Shown: piece after piece, positions 2,244 to 12,044 of the stretch
Layout of the letters: each line of letters opens with the position of its first letter
How positions within the stretch are numbered: the stretch's first letter is position 1
DNA from: Myxococcales bacterium
GTDB taxonomy: Bacteria; Myxococcota_A; Polyangia; Haliangiales; Haliangiaceae
Reading direction: 5' to 3'
DNA length: 28,758 nt
Assembly: GCA_016706545.1 (NCBI GenBank)
Contig: JADJJK010000031.1
Location: 85,650-114,407 of the forward strand
Program-made: the position numbers and the translations under genes
Notes under the pieces: model-generated
The model's input: only the letters and a program-made list of their open reading frames with translations
Told to the model about the DNA's origin: nothing
The model's database searches: none

Positions 2244-2506
2244 TCGCATCTCGTATTGCCAATCGTCTGCAAGATTGTTAATCTGTGCCGGCAATCAAAT
2301 GGCTATCTCTTCACGTCATAGTAAGGCCGCGCAGCTCACGCTCGAGTCCGCGCGCAAGCCCACCGGCCACGGCGGCTGGCGCCCCGGGGCTGTCGCCGCG
2401 TCGCGGTGGTCAGATTGCCTCAGTGGAACCGCTCGCCGCCATGGGGTAGTTCCGGATCTGACCGCCGCCTATGGCCCGGCGCGAGTCAACGAGAACTGCA
2501 AAACCG

Positions 2507-2533
2507 CCAATAGCTGTTCCCAGTTGCTATTGG
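2507..2533. promoter_or_regulatory. Inverted repeat CCAATAGC-N11-GCTATTGG in the 5' leader of the adenylation gene (candidate operator or RNA stem-loop)
   Basis: Perfect 8-bp arms, about 65 bp upstream of the ATG at 2599. Confidence 0.25.
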
Positions 2534-2598
2534 TGGTTCGCTGTGCGAACCTATCATCCGGGTACCGAATGGTCCCACAACTGTAGCGGCCGCCACGA

Positions 2599-4068
2599 AT
2601 GACTGAAGTCGAGATATCGACAATCGCTCTGATGGTTCGCGAGGCGCTCGATGGGCCTGACCGTCTGTTGGTCGAGGACGGATGGGGGCGATGGGGCCTA
2701 AGCACGTCTCAGACCCTTTCGCTTGCGGAGATGCTCATGGAGGTACTCGGGGACCGGGCCAGTCGACCTCTGGTGGCGTACCTGCAAAAGTCTCGACTCT
2801 ATTACGCATTCACCGCTTGCTGCTTCCTTAACCGCTTGAGTTACTGCCCGATCGATGCATCAAACCCGCTACAGAGGGTGCTCGATGTTGCTGCGCAGTT
2901 GCCAGACGCCATAATTGTCTGCGACAATGAGGAGGTCCTTGCTTCGATCTTGGAGCGAAAGATCGATGGCATCCGCATCAGCGAGGACTTTACCCGGGAA
3001 GATCGAGAGAACCGAGACGCGGTTGCAATGCCCGGGACGAAGAGTCCGCACTATTGTATCGCCACATCCGGTAGCACCGGTACACCGAAGTTGGTGCTGG
3101 TTCCGCATGATCACACGATTCCATTTGTGCGCTGGGCAGTACCCTTCTATAGAATCGGTCAAGGTTGCCGTTGGGCGCAATTCTCAAGCATCGGGTTCGA
3201 CCTTTCGCTCGTTGACTTCTTGTCTGTGGTGTGTGGCGGCGGGGTTCTCATTTCGCTTTCCTCTCAGCTCGACCGCATGCGTCCGGCGCTTGCGGTGAAA
3301 CGATGCCGTATTACCCACTGGCACTCCGTGCCGTCGATGATCCCGTACTTTCTCATCGATTCGGTAGGGGACGATCAGTCCACATGTCAGGTGTTCTCGT
3401 TCTGCGGTGAACCGCTTCAGCGAGCAAATGCAGACAAGCTCATGGCTCGATACCCTGGGGCAAGAATCGTAAATACATATGGTCCAACCGAAGGCACGCT
3501 GTTCTGCTCATTCTTCGAATATCGCCCCAATGACGAGACCGTGGTCGGAGACTTCGTCCCCATCGGACAACCGATACCACCGTGGAACTTCATCCTAATT
3601 CCCGAGGAGCGAGCGGAAAGGCTGGTGCTCATTGCCCCGAACATTGCCGACGGTTATGTCGGAACCGAATCCGCCGCGTTCGCCGCCGTCGATCTGTTTG
3701 GGTTCCGGCTACGCGCTTTCGACACGGGGGACAGGGTGAAGAGGCTTGGGCTACATCTCTATTTTTCACATCGAGTGGACACTATGGTGAAGGTGAATGG
3801 AAATCGCTTAGATCTCGCCGAGGTGGAGGCCGTTGCACAGCGCCTTGGTTTCACCAATCCGATGGCATTCGTGGTGGGAAGCGGAGTAACTTTGGTGGCC
3901 GAAGGAGAGCAAGACGCGGTGACGCTCCTGATCCAACAACTCGGTGAGCACCTGCCGCAGTATGGCGTTCCCAATGTTGTGCGAGTTGTTCCCGCGCACC
4001 CGCGCACCCCAAGCGGCAAGCTCGACCGGCGGGCCGTCCGAAAGTCGCTCGGAGAAAACAGTGAATAG
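2599..4068 (+). CDS. Stand-alone adenylation-domain enzyme (AMP-dependent synthetase/ligase; DltA or NRPS A-domain-like)
   Basis: Core motifs A3 TSGSTGTPKLV, A4 FDLS, A5 NTYGPTE, A7 FDTGDRV, A8 VKVNGNRLDLAEVE, A10 PSGKLDRRA. 489 aa. GC about 50%. Confidence 0.9.
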   Translation: MTEVEISTIALMVREALDGPDRLLVEDGWGRWGLSTSQTLSLAEMLMEVLGDRASRPLVAYLQKSRLYYAFTACCFLNRLSYCPIDASNPLQRVLDVAAQLPDAIIVCDNEEVLASILERKIDGIRISEDFTREDRENRDAVAMPGTKSPHYCIATSGSTGTPKLVLVPHDHTIPFVRWAVPFYRIGQGCRWAQFSSIGFDLSLVDFLSVVCGGGVLISLSSQLDRMRPALAVKRCRITHWHSVPSMIPYFLIDSVGDDQSTCQVFSFCGEPLQRANADKLMARYPGARIVNTYGPTEGTLFCSFFEYRPNDETVVGDFVPIGQPIPPWNFILIPEERAERLVLIAPNIADGYVGTESAAFAAVDLFGFRLRAFDTGDRVKRLGLHLYFSHRVDTMVKVNGNRLDLAEVEAVAQRLGFTNPMAFVVGSGVTLVAEGEQDAVTLLIQQLGEHLPQYGVPNVVRVVPAHPRTPSGKLDRRAVRKSLGENSE

Positions 4069-4321
4069 TGGCACATACGAAATCGCCCGCCGGCTAATTG
4101 CATCTGCGCTCGGCGCGCAGTTGGAGGCGATCGGTCCAACAACAGCCATCTATAAGATTCCGGAATGGGACAGCCTTGGTCAATTGAAGATCGTGGTGGC
4201 CTTGGAGAAGGCGCTCAACGTTAGAATTCTGGATGAAGTGACCTTCGAGTCCCTTGTGAATGTACGAAGAATCGCGGCGTATATCAATAATGTCAGAGCG
4301 GAAAATCACAATGGCAAATGA
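4061..4321 (+). CDS. Small acyl/peptidyl carrier protein (DltC-like), GTG start overlapping the adenylation gene stop by 8 nt
   Basis: Phosphopantetheine-attachment motif EWDSLGQLKIV. About 86 aa. GGAG Shine-Dalgarno 6 nt upstream of GTG 4061. The ORF-track entry 3944-4321 is the same frame with a spurious N-extension. Confidence 0.75.
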   Translation: MNSGTYEIARRLIASALGAQLEAIGPTTAIYKIPEWDSLGQLKIVVALEKALNVRILDEVTFESLVNVRRIAAYINNVRAENHNGK

Positions 4322-5090
4322 GGTAAATTTCGAGGCGGCGGACGGACATGTGGTCCGTGGAACCCATACCCAGGCGCATGCGGAGCGGGGGATGGTCCTG
4401 CTCGTCCACGGCATCACCGCCGATCGCCATGAATGGAGTTTCTTCGACTTTCTAGCAGCGGAACTGCTGGGTCAGGGCTTCAGCTCACTCGCCATTGACT
4501 ACCGAGGGCACGGGGCGTCTTCGATCCCTATTTCGGAATTGAGTCTCGCGGGTGTTGTGCTCGATATCGCTGCGAGTTGGGAATACTGCCTCGAGCGCCG
4601 CCAGAATCCGTCGGCAATCAAGGTGATCGTGGGCAACAGCTTCGGTGGTGGTGCCTCACTCTTGTTCAGCTCATGGAGTGGAGAAATCGATCATGTTGTT
4701 GCCACATGCCCTGTTCTCTCATACGTCGACGACCTCGATCGTGTCAACAGAGCATGGCGGAGTGACCTCCCGACTGGTCGAATTCACTACGCGAGCAAGA
4801 GTCTTCCTTCTTCCATTGTTCCGCAAATGTACCTGTTCGATCTGATGCTGGCGCGGACGACGCGCAACGTGAATCTAACCATTTTCCACGGCACATCGGA
4901 CACCGATGTCCCCATTTTGGCGAGCGAGCAATTTATCGAGAGTCGAGGCAGTGGTAACCTCCACCGGCTCCTAGGAATGGACCATTCGTTCTCAGCACCC
5001 GAAGGAACCGAGAATCGCGCCGCGGTATCGCTTGAATTTCGAAGGCGCGCGGCTCGTGAAATTTCCACCTTTGTCGGAAGCCTCGGGTGA
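4311..5090 (+). CDS. Alpha/beta-hydrolase fold protein (thioesterase or acyl-transfer candidate); alternative in-frame starts at 4290 and 4260
   Basis: HG oxyanion motif (LLVHGITADRHEW), nucleophile elbow GNSFGG, and catalytic Asp/His candidates (TSDTDVP, MDHSF). The ATG at 4311 overlaps the carrier-protein stop (TGA 4319-4321). Confidence 0.8.
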   Translation: MANEVNFEAADGHVVRGTHTQAHAERGMVLLVHGITADRHEWSFFDFLAAELLGQGFSSLAIDYRGHGASSIPISELSLAGVVLDIAASWEYCLERRQNPSAIKVIVGNSFGGGASLLFSSWSGEIDHVVATCPVLSYVDDLDRVNRAWRSDLPTGRIHYASKSLPSSIVPQMYLFDLMLARTTRNVNLTIFHGTSDTDVPILASEQFIESRGSGNLHRLLGMDHSFSAPEGTENRAAVSLEFRRRAAREISTFVGSLG

Positions 5091-5695
5091 TGCTCACCAT
5101 TACCGAACCTCTTTTTCTTGCCGAACCTCGTAGTTGGCCCGAGTGGGACATCTCGCTCGGAGCCTTTGTGACTGTTGAAGCGAGTCCTGAAGCTCCCGTG
5201 AGAATCAGTCCCAGGTGCCGTGTAGGGCACCATGTCTACATTGGCTCGGCTGTAACGCTATGTAATGGAGTCCGACTTGACACCATGAGCTTTGTTGGCG
5301 CTCGAACGACAATCGGAGAGGGCTCCGCAGTTCACAGCGTGAAGGTATTCGAAGCAGTGACGATTGGTCGCAACACGTTTATTGGGGGAGATGTGTCTAA
5401 CTGGACCATCATCGGCGATGATGTGACCTTCATGGGGCGAATCGTGCATACCTATCGGAAGGCCGGAGGCAGGGATGACTGGGTGGGCGCAGGACCACAG
5501 CCATCGCCCCGGATTGGGGATAAGGCGATCATCGGTGAGAACGCGCTTCTTATCGGTGGCATTGATATTGGCCGCGGTGCGTACGTGTCGGCCGGGGAGG
5601 TCGTCAAGTACGATGTTCCCGCCGGGCACCTTGCGATCAACGGAGAACTCATTCCTCTCTCTGCCTTCCGCGGGTTCATCAAGAGTCGCGAGTAG
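5087..5695 (+). CDS. Hexapeptide-repeat (left-handed beta-helix) acyltransferase
   Basis: Repeated [LIV]-G-x-x-x-x hexads (VYIGSAVTLCNGVRLD, VFEAVTIGRNTFIGGDV, IGDKAIIGENALLIGGIDIGRGAYVSAG). ATGA start/stop overlap with the upstream gene. Confidence 0.8.
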   Translation: MMLTITEPLFLAEPRSWPEWDISLGAFVTVEASPEAPVRISPRCRVGHHVYIGSAVTLCNGVRLDTMSFVGARTTIGEGSAVHSVKVFEAVTIGRNTFIGGDVSNWTIIGDDVTFMGRIVHTYRKAGGRDDWVGAGPQPSPRIGDKAIIGENALLIGGIDIGRGAYVSAGEVVKYDVPAGHLAINGELIPLSAFRGFIKSRE

Positions 5696-5709
5696 GGCAC
5701 GAGGCCCGT

Positions 5710-6852
5710 ATGAAACTGCGAGTGTTCGTCAGCCATAGTTTTCATGCCGAGCACCACCTGCACGGCAAGCTTGATGGTTTTCGTAACTCTGTGGATGCTG
5801 CTCGGGTTGAGGTGCTGTCGCATGCCAAACTGGGGTTGCGGGATGTCTCAATTGATCTCCACTTTGAGGATACGGCGATTGGACAGTTGCTACCTGCGCG
5901 GACACGAATAGACATCGAATGCGCTGACATCTTCATAATCGATATTTCAGCCCGCACTGCGAACACATTTTTTGAACTCGGGTATGCTCGTGCTTTGGGT
6001 GTGGAAACAATTGTGATTCAACAACGCTCTATCCAAGAATCGATTCCGGCGAACGTGGCCGACCTTCTTGTCGGATTCTATGGGACCACAGATGAGCTAC
6101 GGCAGATTGTCGCGAGGCGACTCAGCGAGATTCTGGGAGATGTGGCGTCCTTGGGCGCGAGCCGACCGCGCGACCGATGTTTCTGGTTCGAACCGGATGT
6201 TAGAGAGGTGCATATCGTGTGTGGCAGCGAGCCTGAGGCGACGCGATTTGCCAACCGGGACTCCGACGACTACTTGCTTATCGACAACTTTGACGACCGC
6301 GATGCTCTCTTTGCGCTGAGCACCTTGCTGTCTCGCGCATACCCGAACGCGAACTTGGTCCGCCACACCTCGGCGAACCTGCCCCCGGACATCTACCACT
6401 CCAATCTGGTTCTTGTTGGTGGCCCTCTTACAAATCGTGTCGCCGCGGAGATGATGGCGGAACTTAACGTGAAAGTTAGATACCTTGATGGCGACGATGG
6501 CATTGAGTTTCAGGGGCCACGTGGGCTTGAGATCGTACGATCCCAGCGGGATGCGTCAGGTGTGATCGTTGCAGACGCAGGGTATTTTGGCCGTTTTCGG
6601 AACCCATTTGCGCGTCGGAACCGCATCATCATGTGCCAGGGATGCCATACATTCGGAACGCTCGCAGCGAGTGCCATCCTTGCGGACGACAATCAGGCGC
6701 AGGACAACGCACGCTACCTTGAGAAGCTTTCCGGTGTAGATGCCCGAGCAATCGCTCGAATAGAGTGCGTATTCTCAGTCCGAGTTCTCACTAACCGACG
6801 GGTACTGCCTGCAGCCGTCACCGAGCCCTTAACATTTGTACATGTTTCTTGA
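5710..6852 (+). CDS. Two-domain protein: N-terminal TIR/NDT-like (flavodoxin-fold) domain plus C-terminal Rossmann-like domain with SLOG/LOG-like glycine motifs
   Basis: N-terminal: VFVSHSF...DLHFEDTAIGQLL...ADIFIIDISARTANTFFELGYARALG, matching the TIR / nucleoside 2-deoxyribosyltransferase-like pattern with a conserved Glu. C-terminal: LVLVGGPLTN...IIMCQGCHTFGTLAASAIL resembles the LOG/SLOG GGxxG...PGGxGTxxE motifs. GAGG Shine-Dalgarno; 14-bp gap after the LbH gene. Domain calls are motif-level only. Confidence 0.65.
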   Translation: MKLRVFVSHSFHAEHHLHGKLDGFRNSVDAARVEVLSHAKLGLRDVSIDLHFEDTAIGQLLPARTRIDIECADIFIIDISARTANTFFELGYARALGVETIVIQQRSIQESIPANVADLLVGFYGTTDELRQIVARRLSEILGDVASLGASRPRDRCFWFEPDVREVHIVCGSEPEATRFANRDSDDYLLIDNFDDRDALFALSTLLSRAYPNANLVRHTSANLPPDIYHSNLVLVGGPLTNRVAAEMMAELNVKVRYLDGDDGIEFQGPRGLEIVRSQRDASGVIVADAGYFGRFRNPFARRNRIIMCQGCHTFGTLAASAILADDNQAQDNARYLEKLSGVDARAIARIECVFSVRVLTNRRVLPAAVTEPLTFVHVS

Positions 6853-7509
6853 CAGCCGATGACGGATTTCTTTTCGGAAGAAGAACGTAAGATATTCGTT
6901 GATGTCTTTCGCCATCGGGATGTAATGCTCAATCGAGCGTTCAGCGTCTGCAAGGAGTCCAATGTTCACGTGGTCAACGATGTATCCGCGAGTGTCAAGT
7001 GCATGTGTGAGGATGGCAATATCGATCGCCCAGTTATTCGGCAAGTCGACTAGTGCGAAATCGCATCGGTTAAACAGGTAGGTGCCGCTTAGAGGGAGAG
7101 GGATGGTGTCCCATTCCGGACGGTACAGCTGAAAGAATGGACGAACGACGAGGTTCGTTACCGGAAATGTGTCGTAGGGAGAGTGGAAGATCCCGCGCTT
7201 GAGTGCATGCTTGGGGCCAGTTCGGAGCAAGTCTACCCACTCAGTTTGCCAGTCCCTGATGTCCGCATCGGTCCGAAGCACCAGGTCCTCTCGAGCAGCG
7301 CTCATGCCGACCTTCATTGCGCAGCCGAGACCAACGTCAAGGCACTGAAGTACACGAGCCCCGGCTTCACTGGCCTGCTCAGCTGTGTGATCATCCGATG
7401 CGTTATCGACAACAATGACCTCGCTGACGAGCTTGCTGTCGAGCAAGCGCCGCACAACACTACCAACAGTCTCCTGCTCATTCCGGGCTGGCACTACAGC
7501 TGAAATCAT
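6829..7509 (-). CDS. Family-2 glycosyltransferase (GT-A fold; dolichyl-phosphate-sugar synthase-like)
   Basis: ISAVVPARNEQETVGSVV...EVIVVDNASDDHT...LRTDADI (DxD). GGAG Shine-Dalgarno before the ATG at 7509. 3' end converges with and overlaps the upstream gene by 24 bp. Confidence 0.85.
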   Translation of the reverse strand: MISAVVPARNEQETVGSVVRRLLDSKLVSEVIVVDNASDDHTAEQASEAGARVLQCLDVGLGCAMKVGMSAAREDLVLRTDADIRDWQTEWVDLLRTGPKHALKRGIFHSPYDTFPVTNLVVRPFFQLYRPEWDTIPLPLSGTYLFNRCDFALVDLPNNWAIDIAILTHALDTRGYIVDHVNIGLLADAERSIEHYIPMAKDINEYLTFFFRKEIRHRLSRNMYKC

Positions 7510-7891
7510 GAAATCTCCAGATACGAGGCGGGCACGTGAGACAGTGCGCAGGGTCTTGCGCTTGGAAGCTCAAGCGACTTCATCATGACAACCGGAATTC
7601 TCTCTAGCCGTAGGCGCCAGCTGTGCAGGCGCAGATCTTGCGGCTTCACTTGAATTTTGGCATGAGTTAGTTGTACTGGCATACGGTAAGCTCAGAAATT
7701 CGCTGTGGGAGAAACGAAAGTAGTGTCATGGAGGTTCCGCTACGAAAATCGACTCGGTCGCAACCGCCAAGCCTGGTTGCAGTTCAGACTGAGAGTGAGG
7801 TTCTTTCCTCCAATAGACTTGGCGAGTTTCGCGCGATCGTCACTGTCAAATCGTGCGGTGTGAGAGTGTTGTGATCGCCATCTTCGGCTCC

Positions 7892-8869
7892 CTAGATTCT
7901 CTTTTGCTCGACCAGCCTGCGGTAGTGCTCGCCCAGCAACGTCAGCTTGCAGGCCTTGCTTTCCATGGCCGCGTGCCACATGTGAGGCGCGTCAACGGGC
8001 ACGACTAGGTTTACTCGGTTGTACTTCTGGAGAATCGCAAAGACATGCGTGTGCTCAGGATTGGGTGGTGGCATCCCTGGCTTGCGCCCTTGCATCTCCG
8101 GCTCATACGTTGGGTCCAGTGAAAACCGATACCCCGGCGCTGGAAAGAACTCAGCAATACGTTGAAGCTCCGCAAGACTGATCGAGGGAATCGCCTTCCT
8201 GAGCGACACAAAGCTCTTAACGTTGGTCTTGAAGATGGGGCGCTGATCCCAAGGCCCAAGTGATTGATCAATGTGCGCGTATACACTTCCCGGCGTGATA
8301 TCTCCGACGAGATTGGCGGCACTTCCGACCAGAGCATCTGCAAATAGCGCTGTAAACACGCCGCTCCCATTGCGTTCGGACGCATATTGCTCTGACGTCG
8401 ACGCCGTAAGAATCGTAGTCCCTTCCTTGAGCTCGGCAGTCGAAACGGCTTGGCCTCCAGGACTTCCGGCAATCCCGGAGTGGCAGCTATCCAGCGCAAT
8501 GACCTTGTTCTTCGAGCGTGAGTTATTGGCCAAGATCAGGATCTCAGAGAGAGAGACGCCTTCATCGCCACGGCGAGAGTCGGAGGCCAGGAGGTAGCCG
8601 CCCGTTGCCTCAATGTGTCCGTGACCCGCAAAGTAGAGGAGAGCAATCTCGTCATCCGTCGAGAAAAGCTCCTCGATCGAGTCTTTCAGCTCCGCACGCG
8701 GAACCTGGTCGTTCGGGCTCGTACCCGTTAGCGGCTTTACGGCGAAGTTAACCGTGCCATCGGCGTTTCGTTCAAGCAGTGGCTTAATCGAGTGTGCGTC
8801 GTTGACACATCCGTGCAGCGGTGATGTGTGCTCGTAATAATCAATCCCGACGACCAGCGCTTTGCGCAT
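7892..8869 (-). CDS. Caspase-like peptidase (C14 / caspase-HetF-type p20 domain) with a ~90-aa C-terminal extension
   Basis: [10 protein letters not shown]...GCVNDA...LLYFAGHGH (catalytic His)...IALDSCHSG (catalytic Cys). Strong GGGAGGG Shine-Dalgarno. Lies 26 bp downstream of the TIR-like gene on the same strand. Confidence 0.85.
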
Positions 8870-8895
8870 TGTCCCTCCCTTGCTTACGTGCGTAT

Positions 8896-9282
8896 CTACA
8901 GCGACTTAATGAATGTTGCGATGTTGTCCCAGGTCCAATTAACGATCTTTATGCCGCTGAGTTCTGCCGGAAGACTAGTGGGGCGATTGTCCGCGGAGCA
9001 GTAGACACCAAGGAGCCTTCGCCCCTCGGCCTTGGCGCATGAGGCTTCCCACAGTGCGCCATCCCCCTTCGTTGTGTTCTTGCTAACGAGTACGATCACG
9101 CCATCGCACCCCTTGATGCGGGAACGACAATTTGTCTTCCACTTCTCGTCCCAGGGCTCCTTCACGGACATGTCCACGAACTCGAACGGCGTGCTTTCAT
9201 TCTTGGATTGTCCCACCAAGAAGTCCCGTGACGTCTTGTCCTCGATGGCGAACGCAATAAAGACCCGCTTCTTCCCGGACAT
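8896..9282 (-). CDS. Small stand-alone TIR-like domain protein (ThsB / DUF1863 / MTH538-type)
   Basis: [16 protein letters not shown]...[36 protein letters not shown] fits the TIR-like architecture (betaA VFISF, S-x-W-x-x-E helix, conserved Glu). 128 aa. AGGGAAG Shine-Dalgarno. Confidence 0.75.
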
Positions 9283-10420
9283 ACTGCTTCCCTTTCTTCG
9301 ATGCGCTAGATGGCGTGCTTCGGAACCGCGTCAACGATACTCTGAGTGTTTCAGGCGACCATTTCGCTGGCGACGTCTTGCACGGCTCGGGAGGCTCGCT
9401 CGTTCCCGCGTGGATGTATCCGGACGATCGGCTTGTCGTACGACATGGCGATCTCGCTCTCTTCCTGCATCCAGCCAGAGTGCGATGCATACACGCCAGA
9501 GAGCATTATTAACACGATGTGGACTGGCCGAGAGTGGCGGTCCAAGCCCGCGCGTAGCTGCGCGCCGGTCCCACCATGAAGTGGTCGTGTTGAGGGACCG
9601 AGAACTGGGCAGCATGCCGACACCGGAACGTCGCCAATGTGTCCTCGAACGGTGTCGTCCGCGGTGTCGAAGTCACCACTCGCAGTGAGGAACTCTGCCG
9701 AACGCACCTCAGGTAGACTCAGAATGTAGAACACTCCCGTAGACTCACTGGCAATCCCTCCGGGAGGGTTAGGTGCTGGGGGATTAAGCACTGGGAGTGT
9801 TCCGGCGAGCTGGCGATTCCAACAGTATCACGGGGGATGGCGCGTAGGGAGGTTGGGAAATTCGCTCGATCGTGATCACCCAAACCAGTCCATCGCGATC
9901 CACCGATGTGGTCCATCGCGATCAGTGGCCCGACCAGTAGGAGAGGAGAGTACTCGATGGCAGGATGATGTCCCTGGACCGCGGAGGGGAAGCCGCGAAA
10001 AGACGGAAGGAATCGAGCGAGAGACGACTGTTGTCCCGATGTTGGATCCCGAAGTCGTGAGGGCGCTTGGGGAGCCCTTTCCTCGGTGTAGGACAAGCTG
10101 TCACCACCGGCCTCCGAGGGTCCCATTTCCACCGCCATCACCGGTGACCTGGGGCCTACCCGATGGGAGCCATCTCGGTGTGGTCGCGAGACGGGGTCAA
10201 GGGTCGCTCCGACGACGAGCGCAGCGAGCTTGCCCTTGAGGCCGGCGCGCGACCGCACCACTCTCGCCGGTGGGGGTGGGCCCCTGGTCCCGGTGGTTCT
10301 GCTACCCTCGATCGTCGGCGGCGACAACAAGCCGCGGCGTAAGTCTGCGTGATCTCGTCGACCTTCAAATCCATACGGATTTGAGCTGCCGTCTACAGTG
10401 ACGACTAACCGTTAGGGGCG

Positions 10421-11875
10421 CTAGCGCGCGCTCATAGGTAGGATCTTAGGACCGGCCTCCGAGGAGGACCGGCCGGGAGATCCCGGGGGGATCGACAAGC
10501 GACAACGACAGCCTTCACCCTGCGGTTACCACACCCAGCACACGGAGACTGCGTTGTCTACCCCGCACCTTACCAGGATGCGGACGGCGCTCGCACGCGC
10601 GCTGTCCGCCGATGATGTCAACCAGCTCGGCCGTGACACCGGCCAGAGCGAGAGGCTGCGAACGGTCACGCCGCACCGCCTGTTCCTCTCGACCGTCGCC
10701 GCGCTCGCCGGTGGGAAGGTCGAGTCCCTCGCGGACCTCCTCCGCGAGTTCAATCATCAGAACCAGGTCACCGTCGCCTACAAGGCGTTCTACAACCGCC
10801 TCGCTCGACCCGGCTTCGCGAGCTTCATGCAGCAGATGTTCGCGCGGCTCGTCGAGAGGGGGGGGGCTGAGCGTCCGGATGCTCGAGCCCGAGGGGCACG
10901 CCGCCGTTGCTCGATTCAAGGACATCGTGATCCAGGACGGCTCTTCGTTCGCGCTCAAGAAGACGCTGCAGCACGTGTTTTCGGGACGGTTCACGAACCG
11001 CGAGCCAGCCGCGGTCGAGGTCCACGCGACCTACAGCGGATTCTCCGACGAGGTGTCCACGGTCTCGATCGCTTCGGACAGCGAGGCTGAGCGCCAGTTC
11101 CTACCCGCGCCGTCGACGCTGGCTGGGCGCCTGCTTCTTGCAGATCGTGGCTATCCCAGCACGCAGTACTTCGACGCGGTTCGCGCCCACGGTGGGAGCT
11201 TCATCGTGCGGCTCAGCCGAAGCCACGACCCGTGGGTGTCGGCCGCGTGGGTGCAGGGCAAGCAGGTGCTGCTGAGAAAGCCGACGCGGCTGTCGCGGTT
11301 CATCGAGCGGAACTCCAATCGCCGGATGGATCTCGACGTCGAGTACGAGAGAGGAAAGGACGTATTGCGCTTCCGCGTCATTGTTCTGCCCGGCCGGGAA
11401 GCGACGATGACCCGGCTCTGCACGAACCTTCCGCGCACACCGTTCTCCCTCGACCTCGTGTCGCGGCTGTACCGCTTCAGGTGGCAGATCGAGCTGCTCT
11501 TCAAGGAATGGAAATCCTACGCGAACCTCCACAAGTTCAACACCGCCAACGAACACATCGCCGCGGGCCTGATCTGGGCCAGCCTCTGCGCCGCCGTGCT
11601 CAAGCGCTTCTTGGCTCACGCCGCTGAGCTCGTCGGCGGCAGGGCAATGTCTACCCGACGCGTGGCGATGTGCGCCGCCCACATCATCGACGAACTGGCG
11701 GCCGCGCTCCTCGCCTGCATCAGCATCGCGGCCGCGTTCAGCGACGGCCTGGCGTTCCTCCTGGCCAACGCCCGCCGCTCGAACCCTGTCCGCGACCGCA
11801 AGACCGGGCGCCTACGGGCCGGCCTGGTCACCGTCGGGGCCCGTTCCTAAGTGATCGCCTATGAGCGCGCGCTAG
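10421..11875 (+). mobile_element. IS4-family insertion sequence (about 1.45 kb) with ~30-bp imperfect terminal inverted repeats
   Basis: Left end CTAGCGCGCGCTCATAGG...CTTAGG (10421-10450). Right end CCTAAG...CCTATGAGCGCGCGCTAG (11846-11875); the 18-bp core is a perfect reverse complement. Encodes a DDE transposase. No clear target-site duplication is visible. Confidence 0.85.
10554..11850 (+). pseudogene. IS4-family DDE transposase split by a +1 frame change in a G9 homopolymer (10858-10866)
   Basis: N-terminal part in frame 0 (10554..~10866). The remainder is in frame +1 (..11850) with LLLADRGYPSTQYF...SFIVRLSRS and RWQIELLFKEWKSYANL (YREK region). Removing one G joins the two into a ~430-aa transposase. 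Confidence 0.8.
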
Positions 11876-12044
11876 CGGCCGCGGCTGCCAGGCCCATTCG
11901 TCGGAGCTGCGCGTCCGTGTGCTGGCCACCGGACTGGCCACGTATCCCGACGTGACCGTGGTCTGCCAGCGCGCAGAGTAGGCGCGCGGTCGCGACAGGC
12001 GGTCGCAACGCTGAGAGTCACCGGGACAGTGATAGCGTGACGCC

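Follow-up and report, generated by a model that had tools for sequence, protein, structure and literature searches.

The TIR–caspase gene pair on contig JADJJK010000031.1, from a Myxococcales metagenome-assembled genome (MAG), is an intact anti-phage operon of an already published system and not a new three-part variant. We analysed a stretch of 28,758 nucleotides (nt) of this contig (positions 85,650 to 114,407, hereafter the window), in which a 128-amino-acid (aa) ThsB-type TIR protein and a 325-aa caspase-like protease are encoded side by side on a low-GC island. Judged by homology and gene order, the pair is very probably a member of type IV Thoeris, the mechanism of which has been published (Rousset et al., bioRxiv 10.1101/2024.10.24.620036; Science 2025, cited as Science 387:510 in 10.64898/2025.12.03.692087). 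A preliminary description of the same DNA had proposed a conflict or defence pair within a Thoeris-like variant, and this is right in substance: the pair is of the Thoeris type, with a ThsB-like TIR as the source of the signal and a caspase-like protein as the effector. The novelty attached to the pair falls away, since the two-gene architecture has already been reported as type IV Thoeris (10.1101/2024.10.24.620036). The window adds a myxobacterial, horizontally acquired copy to a biochemically characterised defence family found in hundreds of genomes, and otherwise little. For annotation, the gain is that a "caspase family protein" and an unnamed partner in a MAG can be named as a type IV Thoeris effector and its ThsB.

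The TIR–caspase operon and its relatives

Both open reading frames (ORFs), the 26-nt gap between them and the ribosome-binding sites reported earlier were confirmed, all on the minus strand (Table 1). The caspase gene is preceded by a purine-rich GGGAGGG at 8879-8873, 3 nt ahead of its ATG, and the TIR gene by the purine-rich site GAAAGGGAAG at 9296-9287, ahead of its ATG. The motifs read in the ORFs are FAGHGH (H83) and DSCHSG (C129) in the caspase and LWEAS (E79) in the TIR protein, so that the intact His/Cys dyad (AGHGH / DSCHSG) and the WEAS motif singled out in the preliminary description stand as H83, C129 and E79.

The 128-aa protein had been called a ThsB-type TIR, and it bears that name out. 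ThsB_TIR is its best-scoring Pfam family (30.5 bits against a cut-off of 21.2, E 5e-7), the alternatives TIR_2 and Nuc_deoxyrib_tr remain under their Pfam cut-offs, and the PADLOC ThsB model matches as well (E 6e-7). Two type IV Thoeris systems have been assayed, PsTIR/PsCaspase of Pseudomonas sp. 1-7 and EcTIR/EcCaspase of Escherichia coli 328 (10.1101/2024.10.24.620036). We took the sequences of PsTIR (whole) and EcTIR (nearly all) from the portions of cloned DNA in Table S2 of that study that we compared, ~500 nt each. Over residues 1-128 the window TIR shares 47.7% identity with PsTIR, which has been validated by experiment (BLASTP, E 1e-42), and in an alignment of 10 sequences (the window TIR, PsTIR and 8 homologues) W78-E79 is invariant, E79 corresponding to E79 of PsTIR. 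Within the family the window TIR falls into a sub-clade with a 5-residue insertion, PTSLP (103-107), common to L063, L031 and L001 (59-66% identical). A sequence search of the PDB returned no solved close homologue of the TIR, the best match being a ThsB-like "Tir" at E 0.05.

The 325-aa protein matches Pfam Peptidase_C14 over residues 1-185 (59.4 bits, E 5.5e-16), above the curated cut-off, and the PADLOC caspase model (E 5.6e-19). Its relatives form a large and unusually uniform family and put the ORF far outside chance expectation: 7,996 of 8,000 scored were significant, thousands share 61-75% identity with it over the full length, and the 120 top-ranking ones reach 69-75%, at 323-331 aa. 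H83, D127 and C129 are invariant in 81/81 sequences (the window protein and 80 homologues). C129 has the same number as the residue mutated in PsCaspase C129A, and the first residues, MRKALVVGI, are identical to the start of PsCaspase in the part of that sequence compared. Over all 325 residues the protein is 61.5% identical to the caspase of a TIR–caspase pair on the E. coli plasmid pCREC-591_1; this pair, annotated as "TIR domain-containing protein" and "caspase family protein", was reached via one weak 242-nt match in a search of E. coli genome DNA. The caspase sequence also matches the yeast metacaspase Yca1 around GCxNDA and DSCHSG. We take the invariant acidic residues D24 and D127 to match those that line the S1 pocket of metacaspases specific for Arg/Lys, a feature consistent with cleavage after arginine.

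Residues ~190 to 325 of the caspase match no Pfam family; residues 191-325 can be aligned end to end with each of the 80 homologues and with the caspase from the E. coli plasmid. This C-terminal domain is presumably the signal-binding, regulatory part of the protein. Mean identity across the 81 sequences is higher in the C-terminal 135 residues than in the protease domain (73% vs 67%), which fits a ligand-binding regulator. An AlphaFold model of the caspase built on a 32-sequence alignment reached a predicted local distance difference test score (pLDDT) of 67.5, with values below 50 for residues 182-228, a conserved segment that was left unmodelled. Foldseek recovered with this model the caspase fold alone, the C-terminal domain remaining uncharacterised, and the nearest solved structures were MALT1, caspase-11 and metacaspases (E 1e-9 to 1e-7). 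Matches to the Arg-specific MALT1 and to metacaspases fit an Arg-specific cleavage. By sequence, the PDB holds no solved close homologue of the caspase, and the best match there was a yeast metacaspase (E 7e-4).

The pairing recurs far outside this genome, contrary to the possibility that the two genes are neighbours here alone. Scanning one genome per species gave 397 genomes with a caspase relative, the best 80 of which were used for synteny. In these best 80 the caspases are 67-73% identical and come from more than 15 phyla, among them Acidobacteriota, Planctomycetota, Bacteroidota, Cyanobacteria, Patescibacteria, Firmicutes and several proteobacterial classes, as well as an archaeon. A TIR gene ends at most 60 nt upstream of the caspase gene, on the same strand, in 75/80 loci (median spacer ~13 nt), and is of the PsTIR type in 66 of these and of the EcTIR type in 9. 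One of the other 5 loci is cut at a contig end, and 3 have a TIR gene farther off. An additional TIR is present in L002, L020, L030, L041, L079 and L092.

Two copies of the pair come from a phage-labelled record and a plasmid. One (MT835687.1, 2237-3608) is on a 21.6-kb contig from human faeces deposited as an unverified bacteriophage, and the other (3191-4528) is the pair of the E. coli resistance plasmid pCREC-591_1, where it adjoins RelE/ParE, TnAs1 and IS26. With copies on a phage-labelled contig and on a resistance plasmid, the pair is therefore carried by mobile elements. In some loci the caspase is followed by additional same-strand genes: an AAA ATPase and an S8 subtilase in L059 (8932-12843), and a 951-aa tetratricopeptide-repeat (TPR) protein in L086/87 (L086, 12404-15259). 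These may be accessory or neighbouring defence genes.

Table 1. Coordinates of the features discussed, numbered from the first letter of the window.
Feature	Position	Strand	Details
ThsB-type TIR gene, 128 aa	8896..9282	minus	putative signal synthase, PsTIR subtype; predicted catalytic Glu E79
Caspase-like (C14) gene, putative effector protease, 325 aa	7892..8869	minus	protease domain 1 to ~190, C-terminal domain ~191-325
Spacer between TIR and caspase genes, 26 nt	8870..8895	minus	holds the caspase ribosome-binding site; indicates an operon junction
Decayed EcTIR-subtype TIR	~9306-9716	minus	tblastn with an intact Myxococcales homologue (L008) and EcTIR
IS4-family transposase gene	10612-11850		NCBIfam NF033592, 157 bits, cut-off 115
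IS4-family element	10416-11880		imperfect 62-nt inverted repeats 10416-10477 and 11819-11880, 74% complementary
DltA-like AMP-binding amino-acid adenylase	2599-4068	plus	
PP-binding carrier protein	~4058-4321	plus	
Alpha/beta hydrolase	4260-5090	plus	
LbH acyltransferase	5087-5695	plus	
NDT/TIR-like protein NDT380, 380 aa	5710-6852	plus	
Convergent GT2 glycosyltransferase, 226 aa	6829-7509	minus	

Probable mechanism, rival explanations and known systems

In the assayed systems, infection leads the TIR protein to make N7-cyclic ADP-ribose (N7-cADPR), and this signal activates the protease (EcTIR, PsTIR and PsCaspase), which then cleaves many proteins after arginine, EF-Tu included; PsTIR E79Q and PsCaspase C129A each abolish defence, and the two genes are enough for defence in E. 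coli (10.1101/2024.10.24.620036). Later work, from 2026, describes a phage sponge that takes up N7-cADPR and reports that phage T6 escapes through a capsid-vertex-protein mutation (PMC13243611). By analogy, phage infection of the myxobacterial host would lead the small TIR, with E79 as the catalytic residue, to turn nicotinamide adenine dinucleotide (NAD+) into the cyclic nucleotide N7-cADPR. The signal would bind the caspase-like protein, presumably at the conserved C-terminal domain, and switch on the H83/C129 protease, which would cut many cellular proteins after arginine, EF-Tu among them. The infected cell would die or stop growing ahead of the release of phage progeny. For the window we infer each of these elements from the homologues, namely N7-cADPR synthesis, ligand activation through the C-terminal domain, promiscuous Arg-specific cleavage and abortive infection.

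The same homologues bear on a reversed order of action, in which the caspase would stand upstream and cleave and activate the TIR, which in turn would kill by NAD+ depletion. TIR domains deplete NAD+ as effectors elsewhere and caspase-like proteases activate gasdermins, and the discoverers of type IV Thoeris started from this hypothesis (10.1101/2024.10.24.620036). In the Pseudomonas homologue, however, the TIR stayed uncleaved and the drop in NAD+ was only mild, and filtered small-molecule extracts of infected, TIR-expressing cells activated the caspase (10.1101/2024.10.24.620036). The window TIR is moreover a bare 128-aa domain without a pro-peptide. We consider the caspase-first order highly improbable, and a model in which the caspase cleaves the TIR was rejected on the published data for the homologues. 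It is just as hard to believe that the caspase is a housekeeping or developmental metacaspase outside defence, active for example in developmental programmed cell death, with the TIR gene its neighbour by chance. Myxobacteria do undergo developmental lysis, and the NCBI label of the protein is just "caspase family protein", both of which would suit such a role. But the gene lies on a foreign low-GC island beside an insertion sequence (IS) element, and its closest relatives, accompanied by a TIR partner, are found in unrelated phyla at ~70% identity, a pattern of horizontal transfer; the copies on the E. coli resistance plasmid and the phage-labelled contig argue in the same direction.

Several points weigh against assigning the locus to type IV Thoeris together with its mechanism. 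The locus is known here from its genes alone, as is every myxobacterial homologue, the mechanism having been shown for homologues, and the caspase was compared with E. coli and Pseudomonas homologues and not with the full-length assayed PsCaspase itself. Because the caspase model is only moderate, the sensor role of the C-terminal domain stays presumptive. A consensus scan of 7400-10500 detected no sigma-70-like promoter or intrinsic terminator around the operon, although such a scan is weak evidence for a high-GC deltaproteobacterial host. Finally, with a decayed TIR gene upstream of the operon (see below) and an IS element next to it, the system may be on a path to loss, though both core ORFs are intact.

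The likeness to type IV Thoeris extends from gene order to single residues. As there, a short TIR gene lies upstream of a ~320-aa caspase in a two-gene operon, the TIR carries a catalytic E79, the caspase carries C129, H83 and a conserved C-terminal domain, and the setting is a mobile element or island. An additional TIR is optional in both, and the part of Table S1 compared lists systems that have one, in a column for such genes (10.1101/2024.10.24.620036). The window differs from the listed systems in its host, a Myxococcales MAG, the portion of Table S1 compared having no "Myxo" entry, and from the reference systems in that its TIR belongs to the PTSLP-insertion sub-clade and its second, EcTIR-type TIR is decayed.

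Type I and II Thoeris likewise combine a ThsB-type TIR, of the kind matched here by Pfam ThsB_TIR, with a separate effector that is activated by an ADP-ribose-derived signal. Unlike them, the window has a caspase-like protease as its effector, and the signal of its homologues is N7-cADPR and not 3′cADPR or histidine-ADP-ribose (His-ADPR). No ORF scanned on the island matched SIR2, SLOG/LOG or Macro, and the ThsA effector by which type I and II Thoeris are recognised, of SIR2-SLOG or Macro-transmembrane architecture and encoded next to ThsB, was accordingly absent from these ORFs.

Caspase-fold executioners of cell death in phage defence are also known from PCaspase and SAVED-CHAT of type III-B CRISPR-Cas and from the proteases of bacterial gasdermin systems, and PCaspase has likewise been reported to be Arg-directed and promiscuous (10.1101/2024.10.24.620036). 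Unlike the system in the window, the PCaspase and gasdermin-system proteases either are switched on through proteolytic cascades or by cyclic oligoadenylates, or cut one specific substrate (gasdermin); CRISPR, SAVED, CHAT and gasdermin genes were all absent from the island ORFs scanned. With MALT1 and the metacaspases the window protease domain shares the caspase-hemoglobinase fold. However, the protease domain alone resembles them in sequence, at ~18-23% identity, no solved relative exists for the C-terminal domain of the window protein, and regulation by a nucleotide signal sets the Thoeris proteins apart from them.

A decayed second TIR and the border of the island

Upstream of the intact TIR gene lie the decayed remains of a second one, of the EcTIR subtype, that the operon formerly possessed. 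A 146-aa ORF at 9791..9351 on the minus strand matches ThsB_TIR within residues 93-131 only (Pfam, E 9e-4). At 9353-9351 a TGA replaces a conserved Trp, 16 codons before the normal end, and in tblastn the homology runs on past this stop. The open frame also lacks the N-terminal LFISHSW, a FISHSW-type motif. Three-frame analysis located the homologous piece FSVPQHDH outside this frame, so that a frameshift near 9600 is implied. From these lesions in the reading frame, the second TIR is probably a pseudogene.

Intact homologues of this second TIR are 136-138 aa long and of the EcTIR type, and in 9 loci without a PsTIR-type gene they stand directly upstream of the caspase. One locus (L002) preserves an intact trio in the order EcTIR-type TIR, PsTIR-type TIR, caspase. 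The window illustrates two known Thoeris themes: one caspase can be served by TIRs of both subtypes (PsTIR-like and EcTIR-like), and surplus TIR sensors decay.

The preliminary description had placed the pair on a low-GC island next to an IS element, and this holds. GC content is 0.55-0.57 at ~2500-9500, as against 0.70-0.74 on either flank. At the island's right border sits the IS4-family element (Table 1), with ~700 nt between it and the decayed TIR. Attachment-site repeats flanking the island were looked for and none was found. In the database, the caspase is recorded from a Myxococcales MAG, on a contig of 114 kb.

The neighbouring cassette and NDT380

A conserved six-gene cassette shares the island with the operon (Table 1), and its fifth gene encodes the NDT/TIR-like protein NDT380. 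Every NDT380 homologue with genomic context sits in the same cassette, in which the glycosyltransferase is either a convergent GT2 or a same-strand GT1/GT4. Because a GT2 is part of this conserved set, the 226-aa GT2 gene downstream of the caspase is to be counted with the cassette rather than with the Thoeris operon. The synteny is repeated in Kordiimonas, Solirubrobacterales and Micromonospora, as well as on many contigs from metagenomes, and its usual neighbours are integrases or defence genes. The NDT380 family is rare, with 23 proteins at E ≤ 0.001 among 5.8 billion, and none matched in plasmid records. Among the PADLOC models only a TIR-effector model matched, weakly and to NDT380, and none of the models matched the other cassette proteins. 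A search for literature on the cassette architecture returned nothing relevant.

NDT380 had been described as a TIR/NDT-like plus SLOG-like protein, one half of which stands. Its N-terminal domain has an NDT/TIR fold, and the invariant motifs of the family include FVSHSF and YELGYA (E89). No SLOG homology is detectable in the C-terminal domain, for which Pfam gives just sub-threshold S_layer_C and NDT matches. The model of NDT380 has a pLDDT of 84, and in a PDB profile search the N-terminal domain alone was matched, by DNPH1/NDT structures, with no convincing solved relative of the C-terminal domain. In distant relatives (P0209, P0240, P0253 and P0262) the C-terminal domain (profile positions ~163-380) is fused to PNP_UDP_1, TIR_2, CHAT or HTH_3, and fusions of this kind, to effector modules, are what sensor modules in conflict systems show. 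A profile search yielded 109 cluster representatives at E ≤ 1e-30, a number that rises to 659 at E ≤ 1e-10. A homology of the NDT380 C-terminal domain to the caspase was tried and rejected (hhalign probability 0.2%), a suggestive pairing of CQGCHT with DSCHSG being not significant.

The preliminary description had gone further and joined NDT380 to the pair in a three-component Thoeris variant, in which the TIR signal would be sensed by the caspase and also by NDT380 as a second, SLOG-type effector. Three observations speak for such a variant: the NDT/TIR fold of NDT380 with its invariant Glu E89, the fusions of its C-terminal domain to effector modules in distant relatives, and the position of the cassette beside a TIR–caspase pair in 4 of ~14 contexts, in differing arrangements. 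Besides the window, these contexts are L086/87, where the pair lies downstream on the same strand, L092, where it lies upstream with two TIRs, and the distant variant L059. Seen from the caspase, however, the association is rare, since only 1/80 type IV Thoeris loci has an NDT380 homologue within 8 kb, and that a distant one; NDT380 is therefore not a component of type IV Thoeris. It is always flanked by its own cassette partners, and the other 10 of ~14 contexts have, in place of the TIR–caspase pair, integrases, toxin-antitoxin genes, a Gabija-like pair or other TIR proteins. In the window it lies on the strand opposite the caspase, ~1 kb away and with the glycosyltransferase gene between them. 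Given also that it has no profile similarity to the C-terminal domain of the caspase and that two genes suffice in E. coli (10.1101/2024.10.24.620036), we regard the three-component variant as improbable and retain the two-gene type IV Thoeris operon.

In the simplest reading the cassette is an independent mobile unit, so far uncharacterised, that is found on the same defence islands as type IV Thoeris, and a functional link between the two is possible. More specifically, though this is unlikely, the cassette could represent a conflict system not described before and functionally coupled to type IV Thoeris, with NDT380 as a nucleotide N-glycosidase-type effector whose modular C-terminal domain would sense a small molecule, possibly the TIR product. 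Such a coupling would explain their adjacency in 4 of ~14 contexts, in three gene orders and in unrelated phyla. Conserved, rare, mobile and recurrent beside type IV Thoeris, the cassette is the sole forward-looking lead of the window, and would be new biology should it turn out to act in defence on its own or as an accessory to Thoeris.

Two repeat-bearing features lie on the far side of the cassette. A 253-bp unit in 2.7 tandem copies (1517-2209, 91% matches) lies at the left border of the island, between a sigma-54 activator gene and the cassette. The activator gene itself (65-1447) encodes an FHA / sigma-54-activator / HTH_8 regulator and contains a 9-bp tandem repeat of 5.9 copies at 1171-1232, translated as a (GAS)n linker before the DNA-binding domain.

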